A stretch of DNA of 64,000 nucleotides from Patescibacteria group bacterium. GTDB taxonomy: Bacteria; Patescibacteriota; Patescibacteriia; Patescibacteriales; UBA12075. This document shows, piece after piece, positions 5,590-57,421 of the stretch. How positions within the stretch are numbered: the stretch's first letter is position 1; the number at the start of each line of letters is the position of its first letter. The translations under genes and the position numbers were made by a program. The notes beneath the pieces are model-generated. The model was given only the letters and a program-made list of their open reading frames with translations. It had not been told where the DNA came from and ran no database searches. Where the stretch lies: contig JAHILH010000001.1 in assembly GCA_018897195.1 (NCBI GenBank), positions 28,565 through 92,564 of the forward strand, in the 5' to 3' direction.

Positions 5590-6789
5590 ATGAACCTAGA
5601 AATAATCAAAATGGCCTTCGAGTCATTATTATCTAATAAAACAAGAACGGTGTTGTCGATGCTGGGTATTATTATTGGTGTATCTACGGTTATTGCCGTT
5701 TTTGGGGTGGGCAAGGGCGTGGAGGCAACGGTGAATAAACAGTTTCAGGGTTTGAGTGCCAATTCATTATTGATTATGTCGAGCCAGCAACGAGGAGCGG
5801 CCGCTAGCTCAAAATTTACCGCGTCTGACGGTCCGATTATCAAGGATAAGGCTGAACATATTAGCAATGTGACCGTTTTGGTGCGCAGTAATGCCACTGT
5901 TTCTATCGGCAAGGAGACAGGTAATTTTTCTGTCATGGGCATAGATCAGAACTATTTTGATGTTTCTAAATATAAAATTGCCTCTGGTCGTTTTTTTGAT
6001 GACGCCGAAGTGACTAGTCGGGCCAAGGTTGTTGTTTTGGGAGATGCTAGTATTGCCACCCTTTTTCCAGAGGGCGGTAATCCAGTTGGACAGAGCGTGA
6101 CAATTAAAGGCAAGAGCTATGAAGTCATTGGTGTGTTGGCAAAAATTGGCTCTAGCATTGGTCCGGTAAGTCCCGATGAATCGATTTTTACCCCTTATAC
6201 TACGGCTGAATCTAGTATCGTGGGTGATCGCGCTCAGATTATGATGAACGCAACCGTTGACGATGTGGCTAATGTTGCGGCGGCAACAGAGAGTGTGACG
6301 GCTGTTTTGCGCGAGGAACACAAATTGAAAGCTGGTGTCCCTGATGATTTTAGCGTTCGTGATGCTGGTAGTATGGTGGCCACTGCCCAAGAGTCAGCCA
6401 AGTTGATGACTACTTTTTTAATGGTGATTGCTGCCATTACTTTGTTGGTATCCGGGATTGGGATTATGAACGTGATGTTTGTGACTGTGGCCGAACGGAC
6501 TAAAGAAATTGGCATTGCTAAAGCCATTGGGGGTAAACAATCTGATATCTTAAGTCAATTTCTTTTAGAGTCGGTAGTCTTGTCAATGATTGGTGGCCTG
6601 CTCGGCATCATTCTCGGCACCGGCGCACTCTATTTAATTAATCGCTCTGGCTTAATTACGATTGCTTACACACTGCAGGGCCCGCTTATTGGTTTCTCCT
6701 TTTCCGTTTTCGTTGGTGTCTTCTTCGGCTTCGTTCCTGCCTTCAAGGCCAGTCGCCTTGATCCAGTTGATGCTTTGCGTAGTGAGTAA
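5590..6789 (+). CDS. ABC transporter permease, MacB/FtsX family
   Basis: N-terminal TM, large extracytoplasmic domain, C-terminal FtsX-type TM bundle; typical tail FKASRLDPVDALRSE. Confidence 0.9.
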   Translation: MNLEIIKMAFESLLSNKTRTVLSMLGIIIGVSTVIAVFGVGKGVEATVNKQFQGLSANSLLIMSSQQRGAAASSKFTASDGPIIKDKAEHISNVTVLVRSNATVSIGKETGNFSVMGIDQNYFDVSKYKIASGRFFDDAEVTSRAKVVVLGDASIATLFPEGGNPVGQSVTIKGKSYEVIGVLAKIGSSIGPVSPDESIFTPYTTAESSIVGDRAQIMMNATVDDVANVAAATESVTAVLREEHKLKAGVPDDFSVRDAGSMVATAQESAKLMTTFLMVIAAITLLVSGIGIMNVMFVTVAERTKEIGIAKAIGGKQSDILSQFLLESVVLSMIGGLLGIILGTGALYLINRSGLITIAYTLQGPLIGFSFSVFVGVFFGFVPAFKASRLDPVDALRSE

Positions 6790-6945: not shown

Positions 6946-8499
6946 ATGAATAAAAAAAATACAATCACAATCATGATTTTATTTGCCATGCTCTTATCTC
7001 CTTTTGCAGGGTTAAAAGCAGCAGACGAGCTAATAATAACAACGGGCGATAATTATATAAAAACCGATCGTACAGCATCAATTTCTTGGTATACAAATGT
7101 TGAAAATAATTGTTTTATTGATTATGGTATCAAGTTTGATCTGAGGGATGGTATTAAGGCTACTACTACTGCGGTTGAATTAACAAAAGAAAATATTACA
7201 ACAAAGTATCAATATATTGTAAATTTAAAAGATTTAAAAGAGTCCACGGATTATTATTATAGGGTGAGTTGCAGTCCCTTGGACGGTGGAGATGTTATTC
7301 AAAATGCTATACAGAGGATTGGTTATGATGTTCGAGATATGGATTTAATAATTAATGATATTTATTTTTATCCAAATAATCCAGTAAAAGGACAAAAATT
7401 TACAGGAGAAATTCGGGTGATAATTGGTAATACTGGCACTAAGGAAGTGGAGGTTGTGCCTCAAACCTGTTTGTATACCAATATATTGCAGATTGTATCA
7501 GCTACCACTATTATAGATTCACAGGGTAACGATCTTACAGCTAAAGTATTTTCAGTTTGCGGACCAACGGTGTCGGGTAATGAATCCGAGGCAGTGTATT
7601 ATGAGATAAAAGACGCTGTTTTCAATTCAGACATTGTTTTTAATTCTATGGTTGACGATGGTGAAGCGATCAGAGAAGCCAATGACGCCAATAATGTATT
7701 TAGTAAGGAGATAAAAATAACTGCTACAAGTATTGTGACGGGAGATAATACAGTCATTGACATGGATGCAGTATTGAATAATGGCGACAATGTCGCTATT
7801 GGCAATCTTACTGATAAATTTCTTGCAGAAACTAAACAAGTACGTAATTTGGTTAAGGAGCAGAATGTTAAAACAAAATATTTGGATAAACTAATAGACA
7901 GGGAACAAAAAACATTAAACAAGATGGAGATGGCGATAAATGACTTTATTGCTTATGGAGTAGATCTTAATACTCAAAAACTGGGCGAAGGTGAAAGGGC
8001 GGCAGTAGTTAGTTCATATAAGAGCGCCTTTGTTAGATTGCCAGAAGTTGACGATGAATTAACTGATCTTATTAAGATTGCTAATGGCCGCTGGCCAAGT
8101 TTCAAAAACAGCAATGCGGAAAAAAGGGCTAGAGGGCAATTTATAAAAATTTATAAAAGAATTGCCAATATGGGTAATGCTAATGATAATGCAGCGGTTA
8201 CGGTGATGGCCTATGGTCTTCGACAAAAGGCAGAAAATCGAAATATGAATAGCGAAAAGAACGGCATTAAGACTTTTAAAAGTATTTTTGGTAAAAATCC
8301 AACAACTACTGATGAGTGGAATACAATGCAGGCTATTACATATTCCGGAGCTAGTCGTGGTAAAGATAGTGATGGTGATCTTTTGACTGATGATCGAGAA
8401 AAGATTTTGGGCACGGATGTTAATAACAAAGATAGTGATGGAGATGGTTATATTGATGGAATTGAGGTTGACAATGGTTACAACCCCTTAAAGAAGTAA
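6946..8499 (+). CDS. secreted multi-domain protein (Fn3-like, CARDB-like, C-terminal thrombospondin-type-3 Ca-binding repeats)
   Basis: Start moved to ATG 6946 (MNKKNTITIMILFAMLLSPFAGLKA signal); track start 6829 overlaps upstream terminator; C-terminus DSDGDLLTDDRE...NKDSDGDGYIDGIEVDNGYNP. Confidence 0.65.
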   Translation: MNKKNTITIMILFAMLLSPFAGLKAADELIITTGDNYIKTDRTASISWYTNVENNCFIDYGIKFDLRDGIKATTTAVELTKENITTKYQYIVNLKDLKESTDYYYRVSCSPLDGGDVIQNAIQRIGYDVRDMDLIINDIYFYPNNPVKGQKFTGEIRVIIGNTGTKEVEVVPQTCLYTNILQIVSATTIIDSQGNDLTAKVFSVCGPTVSGNESEAVYYEIKDAVFNSDIVFNSMVDDGEAIREANDANNVFSKEIKITATSIVTGDNTVIDMDAVLNNGDNVAIGNLTDKFLAETKQVRNLVKEQNVKTKYLDKLIDREQKTLNKMEMAINDFIAYGVDLNTQKLGEGERAAVVSSYKSAFVRLPEVDDELTDLIKIANGRWPSFKNSNAEKRARGQFIKIYKRIANMGNANDNAAVTVMAYGLRQKAENRNMNSEKNGIKTFKSIFGKNPTTTDEWNTMQAITYSGASRGKDSDGDLLTDDREKILGTDVNNKDSDGDGYIDGIEVDNGYNPLKK

Positions 8500-14899: not shown

Positions 14900-15009
14900 G
14901 TCATTTCGCAGTGAAACGGAGAAATCGCTTCGACTTGGTATGAAAATAATAACTGTGTATGAAATATAATAGCTAAATCGAAGCGATGTCTCACTTCGTT
15001 CGACATGAC
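14900..15009. mobile_element. family B' repeat (B1)
   Basis: GTCATTTCGCAGTGAAACGGAGAAATCGCTTCGAC ... GTCGAAGCGATGTCTCACTTCGTTCGACATGAC inverted arms; 9 nt after stop of 14025..14891. Confidence 0.85.
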
Positions 15010-19230: not shown

Positions 19231-19361
19231 GTCATTCTGGAAGGAGCCGGGGCGACTGATAGAATCTTCCGATGTTTAAACGACGAAGTAAATTATAATA
19301 ACAAATTTTTTTAAAACAATTGAAGATTCTATCTCTGCGCTACGCTTCGTTCCAGAATGAC
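19231..19361. mobile_element. family B repeat, ORF-less copy (B2)
   Basis: GTCATTCTGGAAGGAGCCGGGGCGACTGATAGAATCTTCCGATGTTTAAA + 32-bp AT centre + AAAACAATTGAAGATTCTATC...CGCTTCGTTCCAGAATGAC. Confidence 0.9.
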
Positions 19362-20451: not shown

Positions 20452-20479
20452 TTGACACTGATTTTACGCATGATATAAT
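20452..20479 (+). promoter_or_regulatory. near-consensus promoter
   Basis: TTGACA-16 nt-(TGa)TATAAT. Confidence 0.7.
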
Positions 20480-21002: not shown

Positions 21003-21407
21003 GTCATTCTGGAAGGAGCGGATGCGACTGATAGAATCTTCCGATGTTTAAAATATGCGCGAAAGAAAATATTACGTATATATTTCAACCAATAAAAACA
21101 ATGAAGTTTTGTATGTAGGAGTAAGCAATAGCATGATTAGAAGATCTTGGGAGCACAAGAGCAAGGTTTATGATAATAGTTTCACGGAAAAATATAACAT
21201 AAACAAGATGGTGTATTATGAAATTTGGGGCGATGTTAAACAGGCGATATTTAGAGAAAAACAGATTAAAAATTTACTTCGAAAAAAGAAAATAGACTTA
21301 ATAAACAAAGTTAATCCATCATGGGTTGATGTGATGGATATGATTGAATAAAAAATTTAAACAATTGAAGATTCTATCACTACGCTTACGCTTCGTTCCA
21401 GAATGAC
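21003..21407 (+). mobile_element. family B repeat carrying GIY-YIG ORF between its arms (B3) - candidate autonomous element
   Basis: Arms ~90% identical to B2; ORF 21055-21351 begins 1 nt after left arm and stops ~7 nt before right arm. Confidence 0.8.
21055..21351 (+). CDS. small stand-alone GIY-YIG nuclease (COG2827/UPF0213-like), nested inside family-B repeat
   Basis: 98 aa; YYVYI...LYVGVS...RRSWEH...YYEIW...REKQIK matches GIY-YIG core; ORF fills the space between the two arms of element B3. Confidence 0.85.
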   Translation: MRERKYYVYISTNKNNEVLYVGVSNSMIRRSWEHKSKVYDNSFTEKYNINKMVYYEIWGDVKQAIFREKQIKNLLRKKKIDLINKVNPSWVDVMDMIE

Positions 21408-21422
21408 AAAAAAATAATTCTT

Positions 21423-21470
21423 GTCATTCTGGAAGGAGTCGGGGCGACTGATAGAATCTTCCGATGTTTA
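21423..21470. mobile_element. family B solo left arm (B4)
   Basis: GTCATTCTGGAAGGAGTCGGGGCGACTGATAGAATCTTCCGATGTTTAA, 15 bp after B3 and 10 nt before ATG 21481. Confidence 0.85.
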
Positions 21471-21480
21471 ATTTAAATTT

Positions 21481-24400
21481 ATGTTAAAAGGAGTAGCGAT
21501 ATTTTTTATAACAATATTCGTCTTCGGAGTTGGTGTTGTTTTTTCCTATGACAACATCAATACCCATCCCCAATTAAGTCGTGCCGCTGAGAATGTATAC
21601 AACAATAGCACCAATCCTAACAAGATAAGCGTCGAACAAATGAAGTGGATTGAATATGGTGCAGCCATGGAGGACACTGACCCGCGCTATTTGAACCATT
21701 TTTATAACCCTAAGACCAGCCAAGGTCTAAAAGATGGTTTTTGGTCTGGAATGCCCGCCAAGGAGTGGGCGCAAAAACAAACCAGCGCGACCGGTGATTA
21801 TGGTTATCAAGCAATCCTTAATAATTACAAGCTAGGCAACAAAGACAGGGCTTGGCAAGGCGTGGGGCATATTTTACACTTGATTCAGGATATGAGCGTG
21901 CCCGCCCATGTGCGCAATGATGGACACGGAGAAGGCGATGTTTATGAGGCTTGGGCACAGCAATTTGGCAAAATTAGCACAAATAATGTCTCTAAAATTA
22001 GTGCCAGTGATTTGAATCAAGTTTTTGATAATTTGGCGACCTATACTTATGATAATTTTTATAGTAAGGATACTATAATTAGTGGCGACAAAAAAATTAT
22101 TGGAGGTGTGATAAAGTCTGAAAAGGATATTAATAACAAGGATGCTGATTATGTTTATTTTAATGGTTATAAGATTGTGAAGGTGAAGTCCTATAAATCC
22201 GGTAATGAATATTCCATAGATTACAGCGTAAACCAATCCTACTGGTCCATCCTCTCCCCAAAAGCCATCGGCTACAGCGCTGGCGTTATCGAACTTTTCG
22301 CCAATGAATTCAAAAAAATAGACGACCAAAAAGCAGCGGAGTTAGCCAATATGAGTCTGTTGCAGAAATTGAGTTATGGCTTGAAAAAAGTAACCGAGCC
22401 GGCGGTTACGTTCACTGACGCAGCGTATACTTGGGGAGATATCTATATGGTGGTGCGACCAACCGTGGTTGGCGAATTCAACGCCATCTTAGCTGCGGCT
22501 AATTTGACCGGCAAAACTATCGGGGCTGGCAACGAACTAATAGTCGACACCAGCAAAACAGTAGGCGACAAATTGGCAGTAGCTGCCGGCGAAGTGAAAG
22601 GTGTTTTTGTTTCAGCGGCAAAAGAAGAAAAGCCAGCTCAGATTATCAGCACAACAGTTCAGGATTTGAATAAAGCAGTTCAGTCAAAAGATAGCAACGT
22701 CAACGAAGTTAAAGTCGCGCGCGTGATTGATGGCGACACCATTGAGCTCGTGACTGGTGAAAAAGTTCGCTACATCGGCGTTGATACTCCCGAATTAAAT
22801 GGCGTTGGCTCAGCTGACGATGAGTGCCTGGCTTGGGCGGCCAAGGTGCGTAATGAGCAGTTGATTCAGTCGGGGCAAGTGCGATTGGTGGGCGATGTTG
22901 GTGCTGACAAGGACACCTATGGACGTTTGTTGCGCTATGCATACGCCGGCAATACCTTTGTGAACGGTCAATTAGCCAATGAAGGCTTTGCGAAAGCATT
23001 TTTTTGCCAAGCTGGTTGGATCAACTGTCCAGTTACGACAGACGCCACGCGCAAAAAGATAATTCAGGACGCGGCCAATGCGGCGATAGCTAATAAGCGC
23101 GGACTTTATTCAGGTGTTTGTGCTAAAGAAGTTGAAATTGTCAAAGATCCGGTTTTGATATTAGTTGAAGAAAATAAAACAGAACCAAAAATTCAAGAAC
23201 TTGCCAAGGGTGTGCAAGTTTTTTTTAGTAATGGGGTGCCAGACAATCCAGTCGTAGTCGAGGACGTAGTGATTATTTTAGATGACGGCATTAACAATAA
23301 TGATGAGGAGGCGACGACTAGCGAAGAAGATGCTACCAGTACCGATGAGATTGCAACTAGTACCGACGAGTTGGAAACTAGCACGCCTGATGTAGCAACA
23401 ACAAGTGATGAGGTGGCAGTAGCTACTGATCCAGAAATTGATATTAACAATGTTGTGCTAACGCTTTTTGGACTGGATACTGGTAGTGAGGATTTTACCG
23501 GAAGCACGACGGTCGGCATAAGAATTGACGGCATTTCTAGTCGAGCGGAATATTATTTATCAGAATATGATGATGGTTTAACTGAAGAGTCGGCGTGGTT
23601 AACCGAAGAGCCGGAAAATTTTACAATCAGTGATAATGATTTTGAACAAGTAAATGTTTATTTATGGATTAAACAAAATGATAACATCTTGCCAGGATAT
23701 GTCCTTGGGAGTATTATATTAGATAGGGAAGGACCAGAAATAAATTTTAATCAAGCTCCGGCGACAAGCACAATTGCGACTGAGGCTAGTTTTAATGTAA
23801 ATTGCGTAGATGATTCACAAGATTATGTGAATGAAAAATATTCAGGCGAAAAAGCAGTTACTTGGAATTACAAATTAGATAATAGAGATTTGACACTTGG
23901 TTATGATGGTGAGGATATTGATTTTTCAGGCTTGGCTGAGGGTGAGCATGTCTTAAGTGTTGAGGCAGTTGATAGGGCTTTAAATATTGCTAGTTCGAGT
24001 TATGTCTGGACAGTAAACGCGCCGGCATCGCTGCCTGCAATTAATGCTCGCGCGAACTATATTGTTATAAGTGAAATTCAAGTTGCTTCACAGTCTTCCA
24101 GCACAGAAGAATTCATTGAATTGCATAATCCAAATGTGTATGATGTTGATATTAGTAATTACCGTCTAACAAGAAAAACTAAAAGTGGTGCGGAGTATAA
24201 TTTGTTATCGTCTTTTTCCGGTAGTGCGAATTACAGAATTCCAAAACGAGGTTTTTTCTTGATTTCGAATAAGATGACAATAACCCGAGATGGCGCAATC
24301 GTGCGAAATGCTGACGCAGTTTATACGGTTAGCGATGAATCAATCGCGGCTAATAATACGATTATTCTTTATAGTGATGCGGGGCAAACTGTTGTTGATA

Positions 24401-24645
24401 AAGTTGGTTTTGGCACAGCCTCTGATTATGAGGGTCAGCCTTTGGTCAATATTCCGGCTGGCAGCTCTGCTGAAAGAAAAGCCTTATGGAACTCCACTTA
24501 TGCATCTATGAATAGTGGAGTTGATCGTTATTCTGGCAATGCCTTTGATAGTAATAATAATTTTAACGATTTCATAATCAGAACCAATCCGGAGCCCCAG
24601 AATCGAACCTTTGAGCAAGAGCCCTGGATTCCGCGTCTTTGGTAG
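21481..24645 (+). CDS. secreted multi-domain nuclease: Zn-dependent phospholipase C-like domain + thermonuclease (SNase) + lamin-tail domain
   Basis: N-terminal TM/signal; HLIQDMSVPAHVRND (PLC/S1-P1 fold); VIDGDTIELVTGEKVRYIGVDTPE...YGRLLRYAY (SNase); VISEIQV...EFIELHNPNVYDVDISNYRL (LTD); acidic Thr/Ser linker. Confidence 0.8.
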   Translation: MLKGVAIFFITIFVFGVGVVFSYDNINTHPQLSRAAENVYNNSTNPNKISVEQMKWIEYGAAMEDTDPRYLNHFYNPKTSQGLKDGFWSGMPAKEWAQKQTSATGDYGYQAILNNYKLGNKDRAWQGVGHILHLIQDMSVPAHVRNDGHGEGDVYEAWAQQFGKISTNNVSKISASDLNQVFDNLATYTYDNFYSKDTIISGDKKIIGGVIKSEKDINNKDADYVYFNGYKIVKVKSYKSGNEYSIDYSVNQSYWSILSPKAIGYSAGVIELFANEFKKIDDQKAAELANMSLLQKLSYGLKKVTEPAVTFTDAAYTWGDIYMVVRPTVVGEFNAILAAANLTGKTIGAGNELIVDTSKTVGDKLAVAAGEVKGVFVSAAKEEKPAQIISTTVQDLNKAVQSKDSNVNEVKVARVIDGDTIELVTGEKVRYIGVDTPELNGVGSADDECLAWAAKVRNEQLIQSGQVRLVGDVGADKDTYGRLLRYAYAGNTFVNGQLANEGFAKAFFCQAGWINCPVTTDATRKKIIQDAANAAIANKRGLYSGVCAKEVEIVKDPVLILVEENKTEPKIQELAKGVQVFFSNGVPDNPVVVEDVVIILDDGINNNDEEATTSEEDATSTDEIATSTDELETSTPDVATTSDEVAVATDPEIDINNVVLTLFGLDTGSEDFTGSTTVGIRIDGISSRAEYYLSEYDDGLTEESAWLTEEPENFTISDNDFEQVNVYLWIKQNDNILPGYVLGSIILDREGPEINFNQAPATSTIATEASFNVNCVDDSQDYVNEKYSGEKAVTWNYKLDNRDLTLGYDGEDIDFSGLAEGEHVLSVEAVDRALNIASSSYVWTVNAPASLPAINARANYIVISEIQVASQSSSTEEFIELHNPNVYDVDISNYRLTRKTKSGAEYNLLSSFSGSANYRIPKRGFFLISNKMTITRDGAIVRNADAVYTVSDESIAANNTIILYSDAGQTVVDKVGFGTASDYEGQPLVNIPAGSSAERKALWNSTYASMNSGVDRYSGNAFDSNNNFNDFIIRTNPEPQNRTFEQEPWIPRLW

Positions 24646-25915: not shown

Positions 25916-26794
25916 TTACTTACTTTGAATGATTACTAATCTATCCAATCCCGCTAAATCTTTTTTGATCTCAATCTTAACATCACCTAATTTCTCTTTG
26001 ATTAATTTCGTAATACCCTCACTCTGACTAGCATCAATCTCGCATAAAATCACATACTCAACACCAGTCTTTATTGACCCTATTTGCTCGAACAGCTCAC
26101 GATAATATTGTAAGCCGTCATTGCCCGCTACCAGTGCCAAAACCGGTTCTTGCCGTATTGTAGGCGAATTTTCGACCTGTTCGGGGGTAAGATAGGGGAG
26201 ATTAGCGGTAATTATGTATTTTTTCCTATTTTCTTGGTTAAAAATGGGCAAAACCGGTTCCAAAAGATTACCTTCAAAGAATTTAATTTTGTGGTCCAAC
26301 TTGTATAAGTTGGCATTTTTTTTGGCAATAAATAATGCTTTTTTTGAGATGTCGATGGCGAAGATTTGAATAGTGTCCGTAAGCTTGTCATTCTTTTTTA
26401 GTTCATTAGCAATCGTAATCGGAATGCAACCGGAGCCAGTACCGACATCAATCAAGGTGATGTTGTTATTTGTTGTGTTTTGTAAAGCCTCCTCAATCAT
26501 CATCTCCGTCTCTGGTCGTGGTACTAAGACATTTTCATTTACACAAAAATCATAGCCATAAAATTCTTTATGTCCGACAATGTGCGCAATGGGCACGCCC
26601 TTGATTCTGAGTTTAATCGCTTTGTTGAGTCGTCCGCTCTGCGAGAGATTCAATTTTGTCTTCGGATAAGTGAAAAGGAATTCTTTTTCTTTGTCTAAAA
26701 CAAAACAAAGCAACGCTTCGGTGTCGAGTCGAGGCGTTGCAGAAAAAGCTTTTAGTTTTTCAGTGTTGAATTTTAGGGATTCTAAAATGGTCAT
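25916..26794 (-). CDS. prmC: release-factor glutamine N5-methyltransferase
   Basis: SAM motif IDVGTGSGCI, catalytic NLPY (NPPY variant); directly downstream of prfA. Confidence 0.85.
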   Translation of the reverse strand: MTILESLKFNTEKLKAFSATPRLDTEALLCFVLDKEKEFLFTYPKTKLNLSQSGRLNKAIKLRIKGVPIAHIVGHKEFYGYDFCVNENVLVPRPETEMMIEEALQNTTNNNITLIDVGTGSGCIPITIANELKKNDKLTDTIQIFAIDISKKALFIAKKNANLYKLDHKIKFFEGNLLEPVLPIFNQENRKKYIITANLPYLTPEQVENSPTIRQEPVLALVAGNDGLQYYRELFEQIGSIKTGVEYVILCEIDASQSEGITKLIKEKLGDVKIEIKKDLAGLDRLVIIQSK

Positions 26795-26803
26795 ATATTT
26801 TCT

Positions 26804-26970
26804 GTCGTCCCCGCGAAGGCGGGGATCCAGGTGCCACAGAGAGTGTGATAATAATTATAGAAACTAATCTAGATATAAATATTGATAATAAAAATACTCT
26901 GTGATTTAAATTCTCCTTAGTCTGAAAGCGTTATGCGAGGGACCTGGATTCCCGCCTTCGCGGGAATGAC
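26804..26970. mobile_element. family C repeat (C2) wedged between prfA and prmC
   Basis: GTCGTCCCCGCGAAGGCGGGGATCCAGG ... CCTGGATTCCCGCCTTCGCGGGAATGAC; 9 nt from prmC start and 8 nt from prfA stop. Confidence 0.9.
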
Positions 26971-26978
26971 GAATGTGA

Positions 26979-28013
26979 TTACACAGCCTTCTGAATTGCC
27001 GCAAAAATATCATCCAATTTTCCCTCCATGATAATATTGATATTATGCCAAGACTCGTTGATGCGGTGATCAGTGATGCGGTCTTGTGGGAAGTTATAGG
27101 TGCGGATTTTTTCACTGCGGTCGCCGGAGCCAATCATCGAGGTGCGTTCGGCGTTTTCTTTGTCGCGTTTTTCGTCGGCGTATTTCGCCAAAATGCGAGA
27201 GCGCAAAATTTGCATCGCCTTGTCTTTATTTTGATGTTGTGATTTTTCGTCTTGGCAGGAAACAACCAGATTAGTGGGAAGGTGAGTGATACGCACAGCG
27301 GAGTCAGTGGTGTTTACGCATTGTCCGCCTGGTCCAGATGAGGAGAAGGTATCGATGCGCAAGTCGTTGGCATTGATAACCAAATCAATCTCTTCCGCCT
27401 CGGGTAAAACAGCCACGGTGACGGTTGAAGTGTGCACACGGCCTTGTTTTTCGGTCTCGGGAACGCGTTGGACGCGGTGAGTGCCACCCTCGTATTTGTA
27501 GGTAGCATAAGCATTAGCGCCTGTGATTTCTAGGATAACTTCTTTGAAGCCACCGATATCGTTTTGACTTGAGCTGATTATTTTCATTTTTAGTTTGTGG
27601 GTCTCGGCGTAGCGGGAATACATTTTGAAAAGTTGCGCCGCAAAGAGGGCAGACTCATCACCACCAGTGCCGGCGCGGATTTCCATGATGGCGTTCTTCT
27701 TGTCATTTGGATCTTTCGGTTTCAATTCGATTTTGATTGCTTCTTGCAATTCGGCCAAAGTGCTTTCCAATTCTTCCATTTCCATCTTCGCCATTTCCAA
27801 AAGCTCCGGATCAGTGCTTGAATCGGACAACATTTCCTTGTTCTGAATGATAGCATCCTCAGTTCGGTGCAATTTCTTCACCATCTCCGCCAACTCGCGC
27901 ATTTCCGAGTGCGCCATCGAAACTTCCTTCAATTTTTTGCCATCATTAACAATCTCTGGGTCAGAGAGTTCTTTTTCAAGGTTATTAAATTTTTCAATTA
28001 TTTCTTCGTACAT
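26979..28013 (-). CDS. prfA: peptide chain release factor 1
   Basis: GGQ motif [22 protein letters not shown]; RF1-type [14 protein letters not shown]. Confidence 0.95.
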
Positions 28014-28492: not shown

Positions 28493-28834
28493 CTATTTCT
28501 CTGTTTCGATTTTCAATTTAGGCTCTTTCTTTGCAGTCTCTTTCTTAACTTTTACAGTTGTTTCTTTAGCTGCTTTAACCTCAGCTTTCTTTGCTCTTTT
28601 TGCAGTTTTACCAGTTTTGATGGTAATTGCATCAGAAGCCTTCAATTTGTCGCCAAATTTCTCAACTCTTCTTGCGGTATCAACTAATTTTTGTTTACCG
28701 GTAAAGAATGGATGACAAGCAGAACACAAATCTGTCTTAATTTCGTTTACAGTTGAGCCAATTTCAAAAGTGTTACCACAAGCGCAGATAACTTTTGCTG
28801 ATTCATTATACTTAGGGTGAATATCCTTTTTCAT
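28493..28834 (-). CDS. rpmE: 50S ribosomal protein L31 with Lys-rich C-terminal extension
   Basis: MKKDIHPKY...CACGNTF...[13 protein letters not shown] core, then ~45 extra K/A/E/T-rich residues. Confidence 0.9.
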
Positions 28835-29958: not shown

Positions 29959-30065
29959 GTCATATCGAACGAAGTGAGATATCGCTTCGACTACACTATT
30001 TCATAAAAAGAGAATGATTTTAGTAGTTGAGTATAAGCGATTTCTTCGTTTCACTACGAAATGAC
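29959..30065. mobile_element. family B' repeat (B5), inverted relative to B1, between atpZ-like gene and atpB
   Basis: GTCATATCGAACGAAGTGAGATATCGCTTCGAC ... AAGCGATTTCTTCGTTTCACTACGAAATGAC. Confidence 0.85.
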
Positions 30066-30982: not shown

Positions 30983-30989
30983 TTTTCTT

Positions 30990-31084
30990 GTCATTCTGGA
31001 GCGAAGCGATAGAATCTTCGACTACGTAAAAAACGTACAAAGTGAAAGGTTCTATCACTGCACTTCGTTTCGTTCCAGAATGAC
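30990..31084. mobile_element. family B repeat (B6), between atpB and atpE
   Basis: GTCATTCTGGAGCGAAGCGATAGAATCTTCGACTACG ... GGTTCTATCACTGCACTTCGTTTCGTTCCAGAATGAC; starts 8 nt after atpB stop. Confidence 0.9.
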
Positions 31085-31153
31085 AATAAATTATTAATAT
31101 ATAATATAAACTAAAATTTCAAAATTACTTTGACACTAGTCAAAATAATCTGA

Positions 31154-37697: not shown

Positions 37698-37792
37698 GTC
37701 ATCCTGGAGCGAAGCGATAGGATCTTCGACTACGTATAAAACGTACAAAGCGGAAGATTCTATCACTGCACTTCGTTACGTTCCAGAATGAC
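37698..37792. mobile_element. family B repeat (B7) in groES 5' leader
   Basis: GTCATCCTGGAGCGAAGCGATAGGATCTTCGACTACG ... GAAGATTCTATCACTGCACTTCGTTACGTTCCAGAATGAC; near-identical to B6. Confidence 0.9.
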
Positions 37793-37807: not shown

Positions 37808-38098
37808 ATGAACATAAAACCATTACATGATCACGTGGTTGTTAAACCAGTAGTTGAAAATGAAATGACGGCTTCTGGAATTGTCTTGCCCGGAACCATC
37901 GACAAGGAAAGACCGGAGCGAGGAGAGGTGATAGCAATCGGCGAAGGTAGGTTTTCGAAGACTGGTGAGCGCATTCCAATGTGTGTTAAGGTTGGCGATG
38001 TGGTTGTTTTTAAAAATTATCCCGTTACTGAGATTAAGATTGATGGACAGGATTTGCTTGTTGTTAAGGAGGAAGATATCATGGCGGTAATAAATTAA
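37808..38098 (+). CDS. groES: co-chaperonin GroES
   Basis: IKPLHDHVVVKP...TASGIVLP...GEVIAIGEG; upstream sigma-70 promoter and CIRCE. Confidence 0.95.
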   Translation: MNIKPLHDHVVVKPVVENEMTASGIVLPGTIDKERPERGEVIAIGEGRFSKTGERIPMCVKVGDVVVFKNYPVTEIKIDGQDLLVVKEEDIMAVIN

Positions 38099-43345: not shown

Positions 43346-43357
43346 TTATATTCCTAC

Positions 43358-43526
43358 GTCATTCCCGCGAAGGCGGGAATCCAGGCGCTACAGACCTTGA
43401 GTACATAATTATAGAGACTAATCTTAATATAAATATTGATAATAAATAATACTTCGTAAATTTTAATTCTCCTTATCCTGAAAACAATCTGCGAGGTACC
43501 TGGATCCCCGCCTTCGCGGGGATGAC
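43358..43526. mobile_element. family C repeat (C3) between GT2 and galU
   Basis: GTCATTCCCGCGAAGGCGGGAATCCAGGCGCTACAG ... CCTGGATCCCCGCCTTCGCGGGGATGAC. Confidence 0.9.
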
Positions 43527-43539
43527 GGATGAAAAATAT

Positions 43540-46767: not shown

Positions 46768-46979
46768 GTCATCCTCGGGCTTGTGTCATGGAGCATAAAC
46801 TCCTGACTATACAAAAAGTCTTTGACTTTTATAACCCGGGGATCCAGGAGTTAATAAAATTAAAGGTAAAAAATTATTTCGAAAGAGTGTGAGTTAAATT
46901 CAAAATATAATTATAAATAAGTCTCTATATCTAAATTCATTATTCGTGGCACCTGGATTCCCGCTTTCGCGGGAATGAC
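46768..46979. mobile_element. family C repeat (C4) with ~55-bp insertion in left hairpin loop, between murA and PEGA gene
   Basis: GTCATCCTCGGG[insert]CCCGGGGATCCAGG ... CCTGGATTCCCGCTTTCGCGGGAATGAC. Confidence 0.8.
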
Positions 46980-46986
46980 GAGGTAT

Positions 46987-50101: not shown

Positions 50102-50287
50102 GTCATTCCCGTCCCCAGTCAAGCTGAGGATAAACCTCCGGCGGGAATCCAGGCTCCACCACGAGGGCGTGTTTAATTATAGAAATCTATATAAAAGAAG
50201 ATTAAATTTAATATTTTATTAAAAATTTTTTAATATATCTAAAATCGTTATTCGAGGTACCTGGATCCCCGCCTTCGCGGGGATGAC
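50102..50287. mobile_element. family C repeat (C5) with 28-nt insertion in left hairpin loop, between rplI and pyrG
   Basis: GTCATTCCCG[TCCCCAGTCAAGCTGAGGATAAACCTCC]GGCGGGAATCCAGG ... CCTGGATCCCCGCCTTCGCGGGGATGAC. Confidence 0.9.
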
Positions 50288-50309
50288 GTGCAATTTCGAT
50301 ATTTTTTTT

Positions 50310-54966: not shown

Positions 54967-55959
54967 ATGAAAAAGTCAATATTAAAGCCAGTTGATGCGG
55001 TTATCGCGATTACTTACCAATGTAATTCGCAGTGCATTATGTGCGGTATTTGGAAAAAGAAAGAAATGCCCGCAATGCAAGCGGAGGATTTTTTGGCATT
55101 GCCGAAAAGTCTGGTTGATTTGAATATTTCTGGTGGAGAGCCATTTTTGCGTGCCGATTTGCCGGATTTTGTGAGCAAAGCGAAGGAGTGTTGTTCTGAT
55201 GTGAATATTATTATTTCGACCAATGGTTTTGCGACTGCTTTAATTGTGACGCAAATGGAAAAGATCTTAAAGATTGATCCGGAGATTGGTGTAGCGGTTT
55301 CCATTGATGGACTGGAGGAGGTACATAATCAAGTGCGCCGAATTGAAAATGGTTTTAATAAGTCAATGGCGACGATTGCAGAATTGAAAAAAATGGGTGT
55401 AAAGAAAATTAAAATCGGTTTTACGATCGCAGATTACAACTATCAAGAATTACGGAAGGTTTATGAGTTGTCGCGCGAGCTGGGTGTCGAGTTGAGTTTG
55501 TCTTTGGTGCATTCGTCGGAGAATTTTTTTAGTCAGGAAAATAAGGTTGATAAGAAGAATGAAATAATCGAACAACTCGAATGGTTGATAGGTGAGGAGC
55601 TAAAAACCTGGAATCCGAAGAAATGGGCACGTGCTTATTATACTTATGGCATGATTCAATATATAAAGACAGGCAAAAGAATCTTGCCTGATTATTCTGG
55701 TCAGTCGAGTATTTTTATTGATCCGAATTGTGATGTTTATCCGAGCGATATTTCTAGTAATAAAATTGGGACAATCAAAAATAAATTCATCATCAGTGCG
55801 CCAGCAACGGTAACGGAGGGGTGGATGATTTGTACGGCGCGTCCAGCGATTAAAAAACATTGGGCAAGGGCGATTTTTTGGATATTGAGAAATAAATTTT
55901 ATTCATTCGTCATTCCCGCGAAGGCGGGAATCCAGGCGCCACAGATGATGGATGTATAA
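54967..55959 (+). CDS. radical SAM enzyme
   Basis: CNSQCIMC (CxxxCxxC) cluster motif, GGEPFL; last 16 codons and the stop codon lie inside repeat C6 (tail residues VIPAKAGIQAPQMMDV). Confidence 0.8.
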   Translation: MKKSILKPVDAVIAITYQCNSQCIMCGIWKKKEMPAMQAEDFLALPKSLVDLNISGGEPFLRADLPDFVSKAKECCSDVNIIISTNGFATALIVTQMEKILKIDPEIGVAVSIDGLEEVHNQVRRIENGFNKSMATIAELKKMGVKKIKIGFTIADYNYQELRKVYELSRELGVELSLSLVHSSENFFSQENKVDKKNEIIEQLEWLIGEELKTWNPKKWARAYYTYGMIQYIKTGKRILPDYSGQSSIFIDPNCDVYPSDISSNKIGTIKNKFIISAPATVTEGWMICTARPAIKKHWARAIFWILRNKFYSFVIPAKAGIQAPQMMDV

Positions 55960-56100
55960 TTATAGAGACAAATTTAATAAAAATATTAATCATAAATAAC
56001 ACTTCGTAAATTTTAATTCTCCTTATATTGAAAACAATCTACGAGGTACCTGGATCCCCGCCGGAGGTTTATCCTCAGCTTGACTGGGGACGGGGATGAC
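55909..56100. mobile_element. family C repeat (C6) with the same 28-nt insertion, reverse-complemented, in right hairpin loop
   Basis: GTCATTCCCGCGAAGGCGGGAATCCAGG ... CCTGGATCCCCGCC[GGAGGTTTATCCTCAGCTTGACTGGGGA]CGGGGATGAC. Confidence 0.9.
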
Positions 56101-57327: not shown

Positions 57328-57421
57328 GTCATCCTGGAGCGGAGCGATAGGATCTTCAAATGTTTAAAAATATTTAAACAGCGGAAGATTCTATCAATCG
57401 CTTCGCTTCTTCCAGAATGAC
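57328..57421. mobile_element. family B repeat (B8), between GT4 and flippase genes
   Basis: GTCATCCTGGAGCGGAGCGATAGGATCTTC ... GAAGATTCTATCAATCGCTTCGCTTCTTCCAGAATGAC. Confidence 0.9.

Follow-up and report, generated by a model that had tools for sequence, protein, structure and literature searches.

The Ssn family of nucleases, described by Chenal et al. 2025 (Nat Commun 16:2388; PMC11893778), comprises single-domain GIY-YIG proteins of about 94 aa (CDD cd10448, GIY-YIG_unchar_3), delimited by a size of roughly 90-150 aa and by a homology threshold of blastp E < 1e-10 at a query cover of 75% or more (PMC11893778). The member from Neisseria meningitidis, SsnA, binds the hairpin repeat NTS, CGTCATTCCCGCGMAVGCGGGAATCYRG, solely as single-stranded DNA (ssDNA) and cuts it a few nucleotides upstream; cleavage depends most on the trinucleotide 5' of the palindrome, binding on the C right after it, and the characterised enzyme has no action on RNA (PMC11893778). 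Repeats of this type, the Ssn-related motifs (SRMs), were searched for with the pattern HGTCWYN(0-2)YYVSBRHN(0-5)WNVSBRGN(0-2)RNCYNB within 500 bp, and were found near the gene in 71% of the Ssn homologs and on both sides of it in 42% (PMC11893778). The authors liken the NTS-ssnA-NTS arrangement to an insertion sequence (IS), to IS200/IS605 and to REP/RAYT, and mobility was not demonstrated (PMC11893778). Here we analyse a stretch of 64,000 nt from a Parcubacteria genome (the window; contig JAHILH010000001.1 of assembly GCA_018897195.1, forward strand positions 28,565 to 92,564), in which a small GIY-YIG gene, called ssn below, lies within a block of hairpin repeats at 21003-21470 (window coordinates are used throughout). 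In our view the locus is likely to be a Parcubacteria member of the Ssn/SRM system, consisting of a host-retained, single-copy nuclease gene and of dispersed cognate hairpin doublets. The first-pass annotation of the window supposed that such a design may be undescribed, which does not hold, as both the repeat-gene-repeat architecture and the IS-like idea were already published in 2025 (PMC11893778); what is new here is the Parcubacteria member, together with a motif variant that falls outside the published pattern.

The product of the ssn gene (21055..21351, plus strand) is an Ssn-family protein of 98 aa with a single GIY-YIG domain, in which the motifs YYVYI, LYVGVS, RRSWEH and REKQIK are present. 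The profile comparison proposed in the first-pass annotation gave a match to Pfam PF01541 (GIY-YIG; E 3.5e-11, 43.7 bits against a cut-off of 22.6) that covers residues 5-80; no domain besides PF01541 was found in the protein, whose length lies within the published size range, and a profile search of all six frames detected no second GIY-YIG open reading frame (ORF) in the window. As a proxy for N. meningitidis SsnA (CAX49033.1) we used the ortholog of N. gonorrhoeae (L092; NZ_CP119142.1 1880219-1883473), a 94-aa ORF with Y6, Y17 and E64, the same residues that had been mutated in the published study. The N. gonorrhoeae chromosome was reached with the window protein by tblastn at an E-value of 6e-11 in 7.3 Gb, the two proteins share 37% identity over 86 residues in BLASTP (E 8e-20, pairwise), and a profile of 50 homologs aligned with the N. 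gonorrhoeae protein over its full length in hhalign, with 99.7% probability. Residues Y9, Y20 and E68 of the window protein align with Y6, Y17 and E64, and within the 50 homologs Y9 and Y20 are invariant and E68 is conserved in at least 90%. The BLASTP and hhalign results and the aligned Y/Y/E residues thus place the protein in the Ssn family by both homology and catalytic residues. Homologs number in the hundreds, at 50-60% identity, and come from nearly every bacterial phylum; a sequence search of the PDB returned no solved relative, NCBIfam holds no model specific to the protein, and TIGR01453 reaches only 14 bits against it (cut-off 56).

One public gene call (P0003) shortens ssn to 72 aa, and the ssnA ortholog of L092 is unannotated and starts at ATT, not ATG, in the record; canonical NTS doublets lie around it, the motifs nearest to ssnA facing inward, opposite to the outward-facing motifs of the window. 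In the plasmid collection, two N. gonorrhoeae chromosomes were filed among the plasmids.

The gene sits between two arms of 50 nt each, so that the first-pass description of an intact GIY-YIG ORF nested between inverted arms was borne out, with spacings of 2 nt from the left arm to the start of the ORF and of 6 nt from its stop to the right arm. The left arm (21003..21052, plus strand) consists of an SRM core at 21003-21038 (GTC-ATTCT...AGAAT-C) and a 14-nt inner extension, TTCCGATGTTTAAA; the right arm (21358..21407, minus strand) is inverted relative to it and has its core at 21370-21407 (GTCATTCTGGAACGAAGCG...GATAGAATC, read on the minus strand), again followed by an inner extension. A solo SRM of the left-arm type (21423..21470, end 21470/71, plus strand; 92% identity) lies 15 bp past this unit and 10 bp before the next gene. 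Judged by their sequence, the arms each read as an SRM, composed of GTC, a stem of 5-9 nt, a loop, the complementary stem and C. All arms of this family, which we call family B, carry GTC 5' and C 3' of the palindrome and share one grammar, GTC-AT(T/C)CT...AG(A/G)AT-C, that is GTC, a short stem (ATTCT or ATCCT), a loop, its complement (AGAAT or AGGAT) and C.

The same arms recur in the window as ORF-less inverted SRM pairs, for which no strand is assigned. The pair at 19231..19361 (131 bp, AT-rich centre, hairpin z -7.7) has arms 94% identical to both arms of ssn (the left arm was compared with 19231-19280), slightly better than the 90 percent first estimated, and the further copies first noted do exist, at 30990..31084 (95 bp, between atpB and atpE), 37698..37792 (95 bp, upstream of a 96-aa ORF at 37808) and 57328..57421 (94 bp), as does the solo arm. 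Every ORF-less copy folds as a long hairpin (z -5.9 to -9.5). The 17-mer GTCATTCTGGAAGGAGC occurs seven times in the window with up to three mismatches, against 0.08 occurrences expected, so the recurrence of the arms is not due to chance. No Rfam family matched anywhere in the window at gathering thresholds, a literature search with the repeat sequences themselves returned only unrelated primer matches, and one combining GIY-YIG with MITEs (the miniature inverted-repeat transposable elements) returned only papers on eukaryotic transposons. Scanning the window for the arm grammar revealed two additional SRM families, A and C, which are described further below.

In order to see how general this nesting is, we surveyed with custom scripts the 80 best genome loci of ssn homologs (L001-L080), 74 of which have complete flanks. 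At least one motif of the arm grammar was found within 250 bp of the gene in 67 of these 74 loci, which come from most bacterial phyla; motifs are present on both sides of the gene in 44, and the nested arrangement of the window, with GTCAT facing outward, in 38. Motif density is 12-fold higher beside the gene (4.3/kb) than more than 600 bp away from it (0.35/kb). The stems vary by taxon and yet stay complementary (ATTGC/GCAAT, ATTCT/AGAAT, ATCCT/AGGAT, ATGCT/AGCAT, ATTTC/GAAAT and others, about a dozen recurrent types in all), perfect stems other than ATTGC are enriched 8-fold near the gene (1.8/kb versus 0.23/kb far from it), and the same stem type stands on both sides in 40 of 47 loci. These counts, together with the complementary variation of the stems, indicate that the nesting is systematic and that the stem of the motif is under selection; the systematic nesting is in favour of the first-pass reading. 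The dominant motif at the surveyed loci is GTCATTGCGAG...GAAGCAATC, with a loop that often contains GCGAAGC; the oligonucleotide d(GCGAAGC) is a very stable DNA mini-hairpin.

The ssn site was also compared in syntenic relatives, retrieved via the proteins encoded by neighbouring genes. In L081, whose housekeeping genes are 84-91% identical to those of the window at the DNA level (72-85% for the immediate neighbours of the ssn block), the same block occupies the same place between a 163-aa ORF and a gene for an SNase-LTD protein, in the order left arm, ssn, right arm, solo arm. In L083 neither arm nor ORF is present and the two genes are 14 bp apart, and the more distant relatives L088 and L089 have clean short spacers of 25 and 29 bp; the empty sites that the first-pass annotation proposed to look for therefore exist. 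A third state is found in L087, which has the solo arm in the same position and, before it, an ORF-less doublet that is flipped with respect to the window unit. The existence of filled and empty states at one site identifies the 468-bp block 21003-21470, with exactly these coordinates, as a discrete unit of gain or loss. A search for near-identical strains, by which junctions could be defined to the base, recovered only sequence identical to the window (L082, L090 and L091). Short-read contigs of this lineage tend to break in or beside SRM repeats, as at the start of L081, the start of L087 and both ends of L091.

The doublets elsewhere in the window show a similar turnover. The family C doublet upstream of atpB (29959..30065) is absent in L086, where the spacer has 17 bp, and the spacer of L083 differs as well; at 30983-31090, a family B doublet replaces a 68-aa ORF and a GC-rich hairpin found in L083 (10889-11206) and L086 (3043-3364). 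The 131-bp element appears to be absent at the corresponding place of L081, where the contig starts only 53 nt upstream. In the spacer between prmC and prfA, the window has a family A element (26785-26990) and L083 a family B doublet (6575-6760) with an identical left boundary, and just downstream of the L083 doublet lies GAATGAC, a 7-nt remnant of a family A end. The sequences at this spacer suggest an exchange of families, or targeting at existing motifs. On their 5' side the copies are bordered by T-rich and on their 3' side by A-rich sequence, none of them shows a visible direct repeat, and the pairs of filled and empty sites are too diverged for the junctions to be placed to the base. In L083, a further doublet type, GTCATCCTGAATG...GAAGGATC paired with GTCATTCTGAACG...GAAGAATC, is found between prfA and rpmE (7834-7956), with no counterpart at that site in the window.

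The divergence between the window and L081 indicates for how long the gene has resided at its locus. The synonymous divergence (dS) of ssn is 0.70, well within the range of the nine neighbouring genes (0.42-2.0) and of prfA, rpmE, atpB, atpA and atpG (0.42-1.2), and its nonsynonymous divergence (dN) is 0.015, giving a dN/dS of about 0.02; release factor 1, with a dN of 0.012, is comparably constrained. A dS at background level combined with a low dN argues for vertical co-inheritance with the neighbouring genes under strong constraint. In the left arm, the stems and the GTC and C flanks are identical between the two genomes and the differences are confined to the loop, and the solo arm is identical at 48 of 48 positions, next to a 15-nt spacer that has diverged. 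It was also considered whether the ssn block had recently been transferred horizontally between the two lineages, on the basis that the block is 93% identical to that of L081 and its immediate neighbours about 79%, and this was rejected, as the dS of ssn equals that of the housekeeping genes.

The features shared with the N. meningitidis system are a single-domain GIY-YIG protein of some 95 aa, homologous over its full length and retaining the catalytic Y/Y/E, a gene flanked by hairpin repeats with GTC 5' and C 3' of the stem, and dispersed intergenic repeats that often form inverted doublets, the canonical NTS itself being present in this window. The host differs, being a reduced-genome member of the Parcubacteria. 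Several points weigh against the assignment. The arms flanking ssn fail the published SRM pattern, which has no match within 500 bp of the window ssn and, among the 80 loci of the closest homologs, matches within 500 bp of the gene at only one. It calls for a GC-rich stem of 6 nt, whereas the ssn arms have a 5-bp AT-rich stem and long loops; because the mapped GTC, the C and the stem-loop grammar are all present, we take this failure to reflect a limit of the pattern and do not count it against membership. Lone family B motifs are not predicted to be stably folded with nearest-neighbour DNA parameters (z about 0), and in the doublets the hairpin between the arms would be in competition with the fold of a single motif, the form that Ssn reportedly binds. 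In addition, no target-site duplication or exact junction is defined, the available relatives being too diverged, and whether the indel was a gain or a precise loss depends on a weak tree of one segment of a fast-evolving protein. In this rough tree the window groups with L087 and L081 with L083, which would imply an ancestral gain of the block followed by its clean loss in L083.

By homology with N. meningitidis SsnA, the window protein should bind an SRM solely in ssDNA and make its cut in the bound strand, a few nucleotides 5' of GTC, and the family B arms would be its recognised motifs. As the motifs are inverted and their GTCAT points outward, one cut per strand is predicted, each immediately beyond the block, and such cuts could seed the copying or the removal of blocks bounded by motifs. 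The block 21003-21470 has entered, or is able to leave, an operon spacer of about 14 bp as a single unit, and since the split from the L081 lineage it has been inherited vertically, with protein and motifs alike under strong purifying selection. We read the short copies as inverted SRM doublets, comparable to REPINs, and not as deletion derivatives of the gene-bearing copy. It is plausible that the nuclease itself drives the turnover and mobilisation of the doublets.

Among the described systems, REPIN-RAYT appears to be the closest organisational analogue. As described in two preprints (bioRxiv 10.1101/2021.07.10.451892 and 10.1101/2022.05.22.493013), it shares with the locus a nuclease gene that is present once and bordered by palindromic repeats of its own, dispersed doublets in inverted orientation that fold into long hairpins and are present or absent between relatives, and vertical inheritance under purifying selection. 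The resemblance is functional and organisational only, as the nuclease there has the HUH/Y1 fold and chemistry and here is a GIY-YIG enzyme. With IS200/IS605, a comparison made by the Ssn authors (PMC11893778), the locus has in common a small nuclease that recognises ssDNA hairpins at the ends of an element. In IS200/IS605, however, a Y1 TnpA acts on subterminal hairpins of the same orientation, the ends do not form inverted repeats and a single strand receives both cuts, whereas the window combines a GIY-YIG enzyme with inverted arms and predicted cuts on opposite strands. Such cuts would excise neither strand, so the 'peel and paste' mechanism is not directly transferable.

The first-pass reading amounts to a transposon in which the ORF-bearing copy is the currently active, autonomous form, the GIY-YIG nuclease acts as the transposase and the short copies are MITEs arisen by internal deletion. 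The ORF-bearing unit and the 131-bp copy have terminal inverted repeats in common, as a classical MITE/IS pair does. The block and some doublets are cleanly missing from their sites in relatives, one spacer holds doublets of different families in the window and in L083 with its left boundary unchanged, and the Ssn authors themselves remark on the IS-like architecture (PMC11893778). The residual internal homology to a parent that is typical of such a pair was not found, however: the ORF-less centres resemble the ssn interior no better than shuffled sequences do (342 of 500 and 168 of 500 shuffles scored as well), the short copies contain no remnant of the ORF, and the flipped doublet of L087 at the same locus does not correspond to a simple deletion in situ. 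The background-level dS relative to the syntenic ortholog and the low dN/dS argue against recent movement and describe a long-resident, vertically inherited gene, of which there is a single copy in 64 kb. Finally, no target-site duplication was seen, and the enzyme as published makes its cut in one strand of ssDNA, 5' of each motif, which on its own excises neither strand of an element with inverted repeats. We consider this explanation unlikely; of the transposon reading, the discrete insertion and deletion of the block stood, and its recent movement and the deletion origin of the short copies did not.

A different history, to which we assign little probability, would have the doublets come first and a free-standing homing endonuclease gene enter the centre of one of them, the ORF-less doublets being the homing sites. 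GIY-YIG homing endonucleases are an established class, the ORF is exactly central in its doublet, L087 carries an ORF-less doublet at the same locus, and a selfish-element context is plausible. The window protein shares the GIY-YIG catalytic domain with the enzymes of the I-TevI type, but as a single domain of 98 aa it has neither their linker nor their DNA-binding module, and it lies in a chromosomal operon spacer with no intron or phage context. Moreover, the characterised Ssn relatives act only on ssDNA and cut outside the motif, not at the centre of a doublet, the four other family B doublets of the window are uninvaded, and the empty sites lack the arms and the ORF together. It is even harder to see the hairpins as transcription terminators or mRNA stability elements, next to which the nuclease gene would stand by coincidence, and we give this very little credence. 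All copies are indeed intergenic and fold strongly as RNA too, yet the GTC and C flanks and the association with the gene recur across phyla, and the characterised Ssn is inactive on RNA. A role as intrinsic terminators was rejected, since no T-run follows the hairpins and a terminator scan gave no matches at the arms.

Membership in the Ssn/SRM system leaves room for a broader and more tentative idea, which we judge to be somewhat more doubtful than probable, namely that Ssn is the present or past mobilising enzyme of hairpin-ended elements found throughout the bacteria, with SRM-ssn-SRM as the gene-bearing form and the inverted SRM doublets of families A, B and C as the non-autonomous, REPIN-like form. 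The clean gain or loss of the block, the turnover of doublets and the exchange of families at an identical left boundary are compatible with this idea and do not prove it.

Of the two other SRM families of the window, family A occurs singly or, mostly, in inverted orientation at both ends of elements that are about 171 bp long and have an AT-rich, non-palindromic interior. In the 171-bp element at 43357..43527, the ends are inverted canonical SRMs of the NTS type, CGTCATTCCCGCGAAGGCGGGAATCCAG, which is the Neisseria NTS consensus itself, here in a Parcubacteria genome. Further copies were mapped at 266-436, 26804-26971 and 55908-56062, and partial ones at 46900-46980 and 50253-50288. The published SRM search pattern has seven exact matches in the window, all of them in family A; a single NTS folded as ssDNA has -8.9 kcal/mol (z -3.7), and no cognate ssn gene adjoins the family A repeats within the window. 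Family C is represented by the inverted SRM pair upstream of atpB, GTCATATCGAACGAAGTGAGATATC ... GTCATTTCGTAGTGAAACGAAGAAATC, and by a second copy at 14900-15009, an inverted doublet of the same type of about 107 bp. As for family B, these elements are given without strand.

With regard to the surroundings of ssn, a promoter-like consensus site with 12 of 12 hexamer matches was found at 20452..20479 (plus strand), upstream of the 163-aa ORF, and the scan detected no promoter-like or terminator-like site between this ORF, ssn and the next gene; the ssn block thus probably sits in an operon spacer. The product of the downstream gene (21481-24645) has 1054 aa and, by precomputed Pfam matches, contains SNase and lamin-tail (LTD) domains. 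This protein is fast-evolving, with 68% amino acid identity to its L081 counterpart as against 97% for Ssn, and one public gene call shortens it to 1001 aa.

The Ssn family was characterised only in 2025, and the locus described here offers a compact test case for the IS-like idea: a reduced-genome member of the Parcubacteria with a single ssn within 64 kb, with three SRM families that include one identical to the Neisseria NTS consensus, and with filled, empty and ORF-less states of one site among sister genomes. The published SRM pattern misses the GTCATTGCGAG...GAAGCAATC type and its relatives, which flank the 80 closest homologs, so that the system probably extends further than has been reported. 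Should Ssn drive the turnover of the doublets, a GIY-YIG-based analogue of REPIN-RAYT would be added to bacterial mobile DNA, and if it is, or was, the mobilising enzyme of these elements, a GIY-YIG enzyme would be a transposase-like replicator of bacteria.

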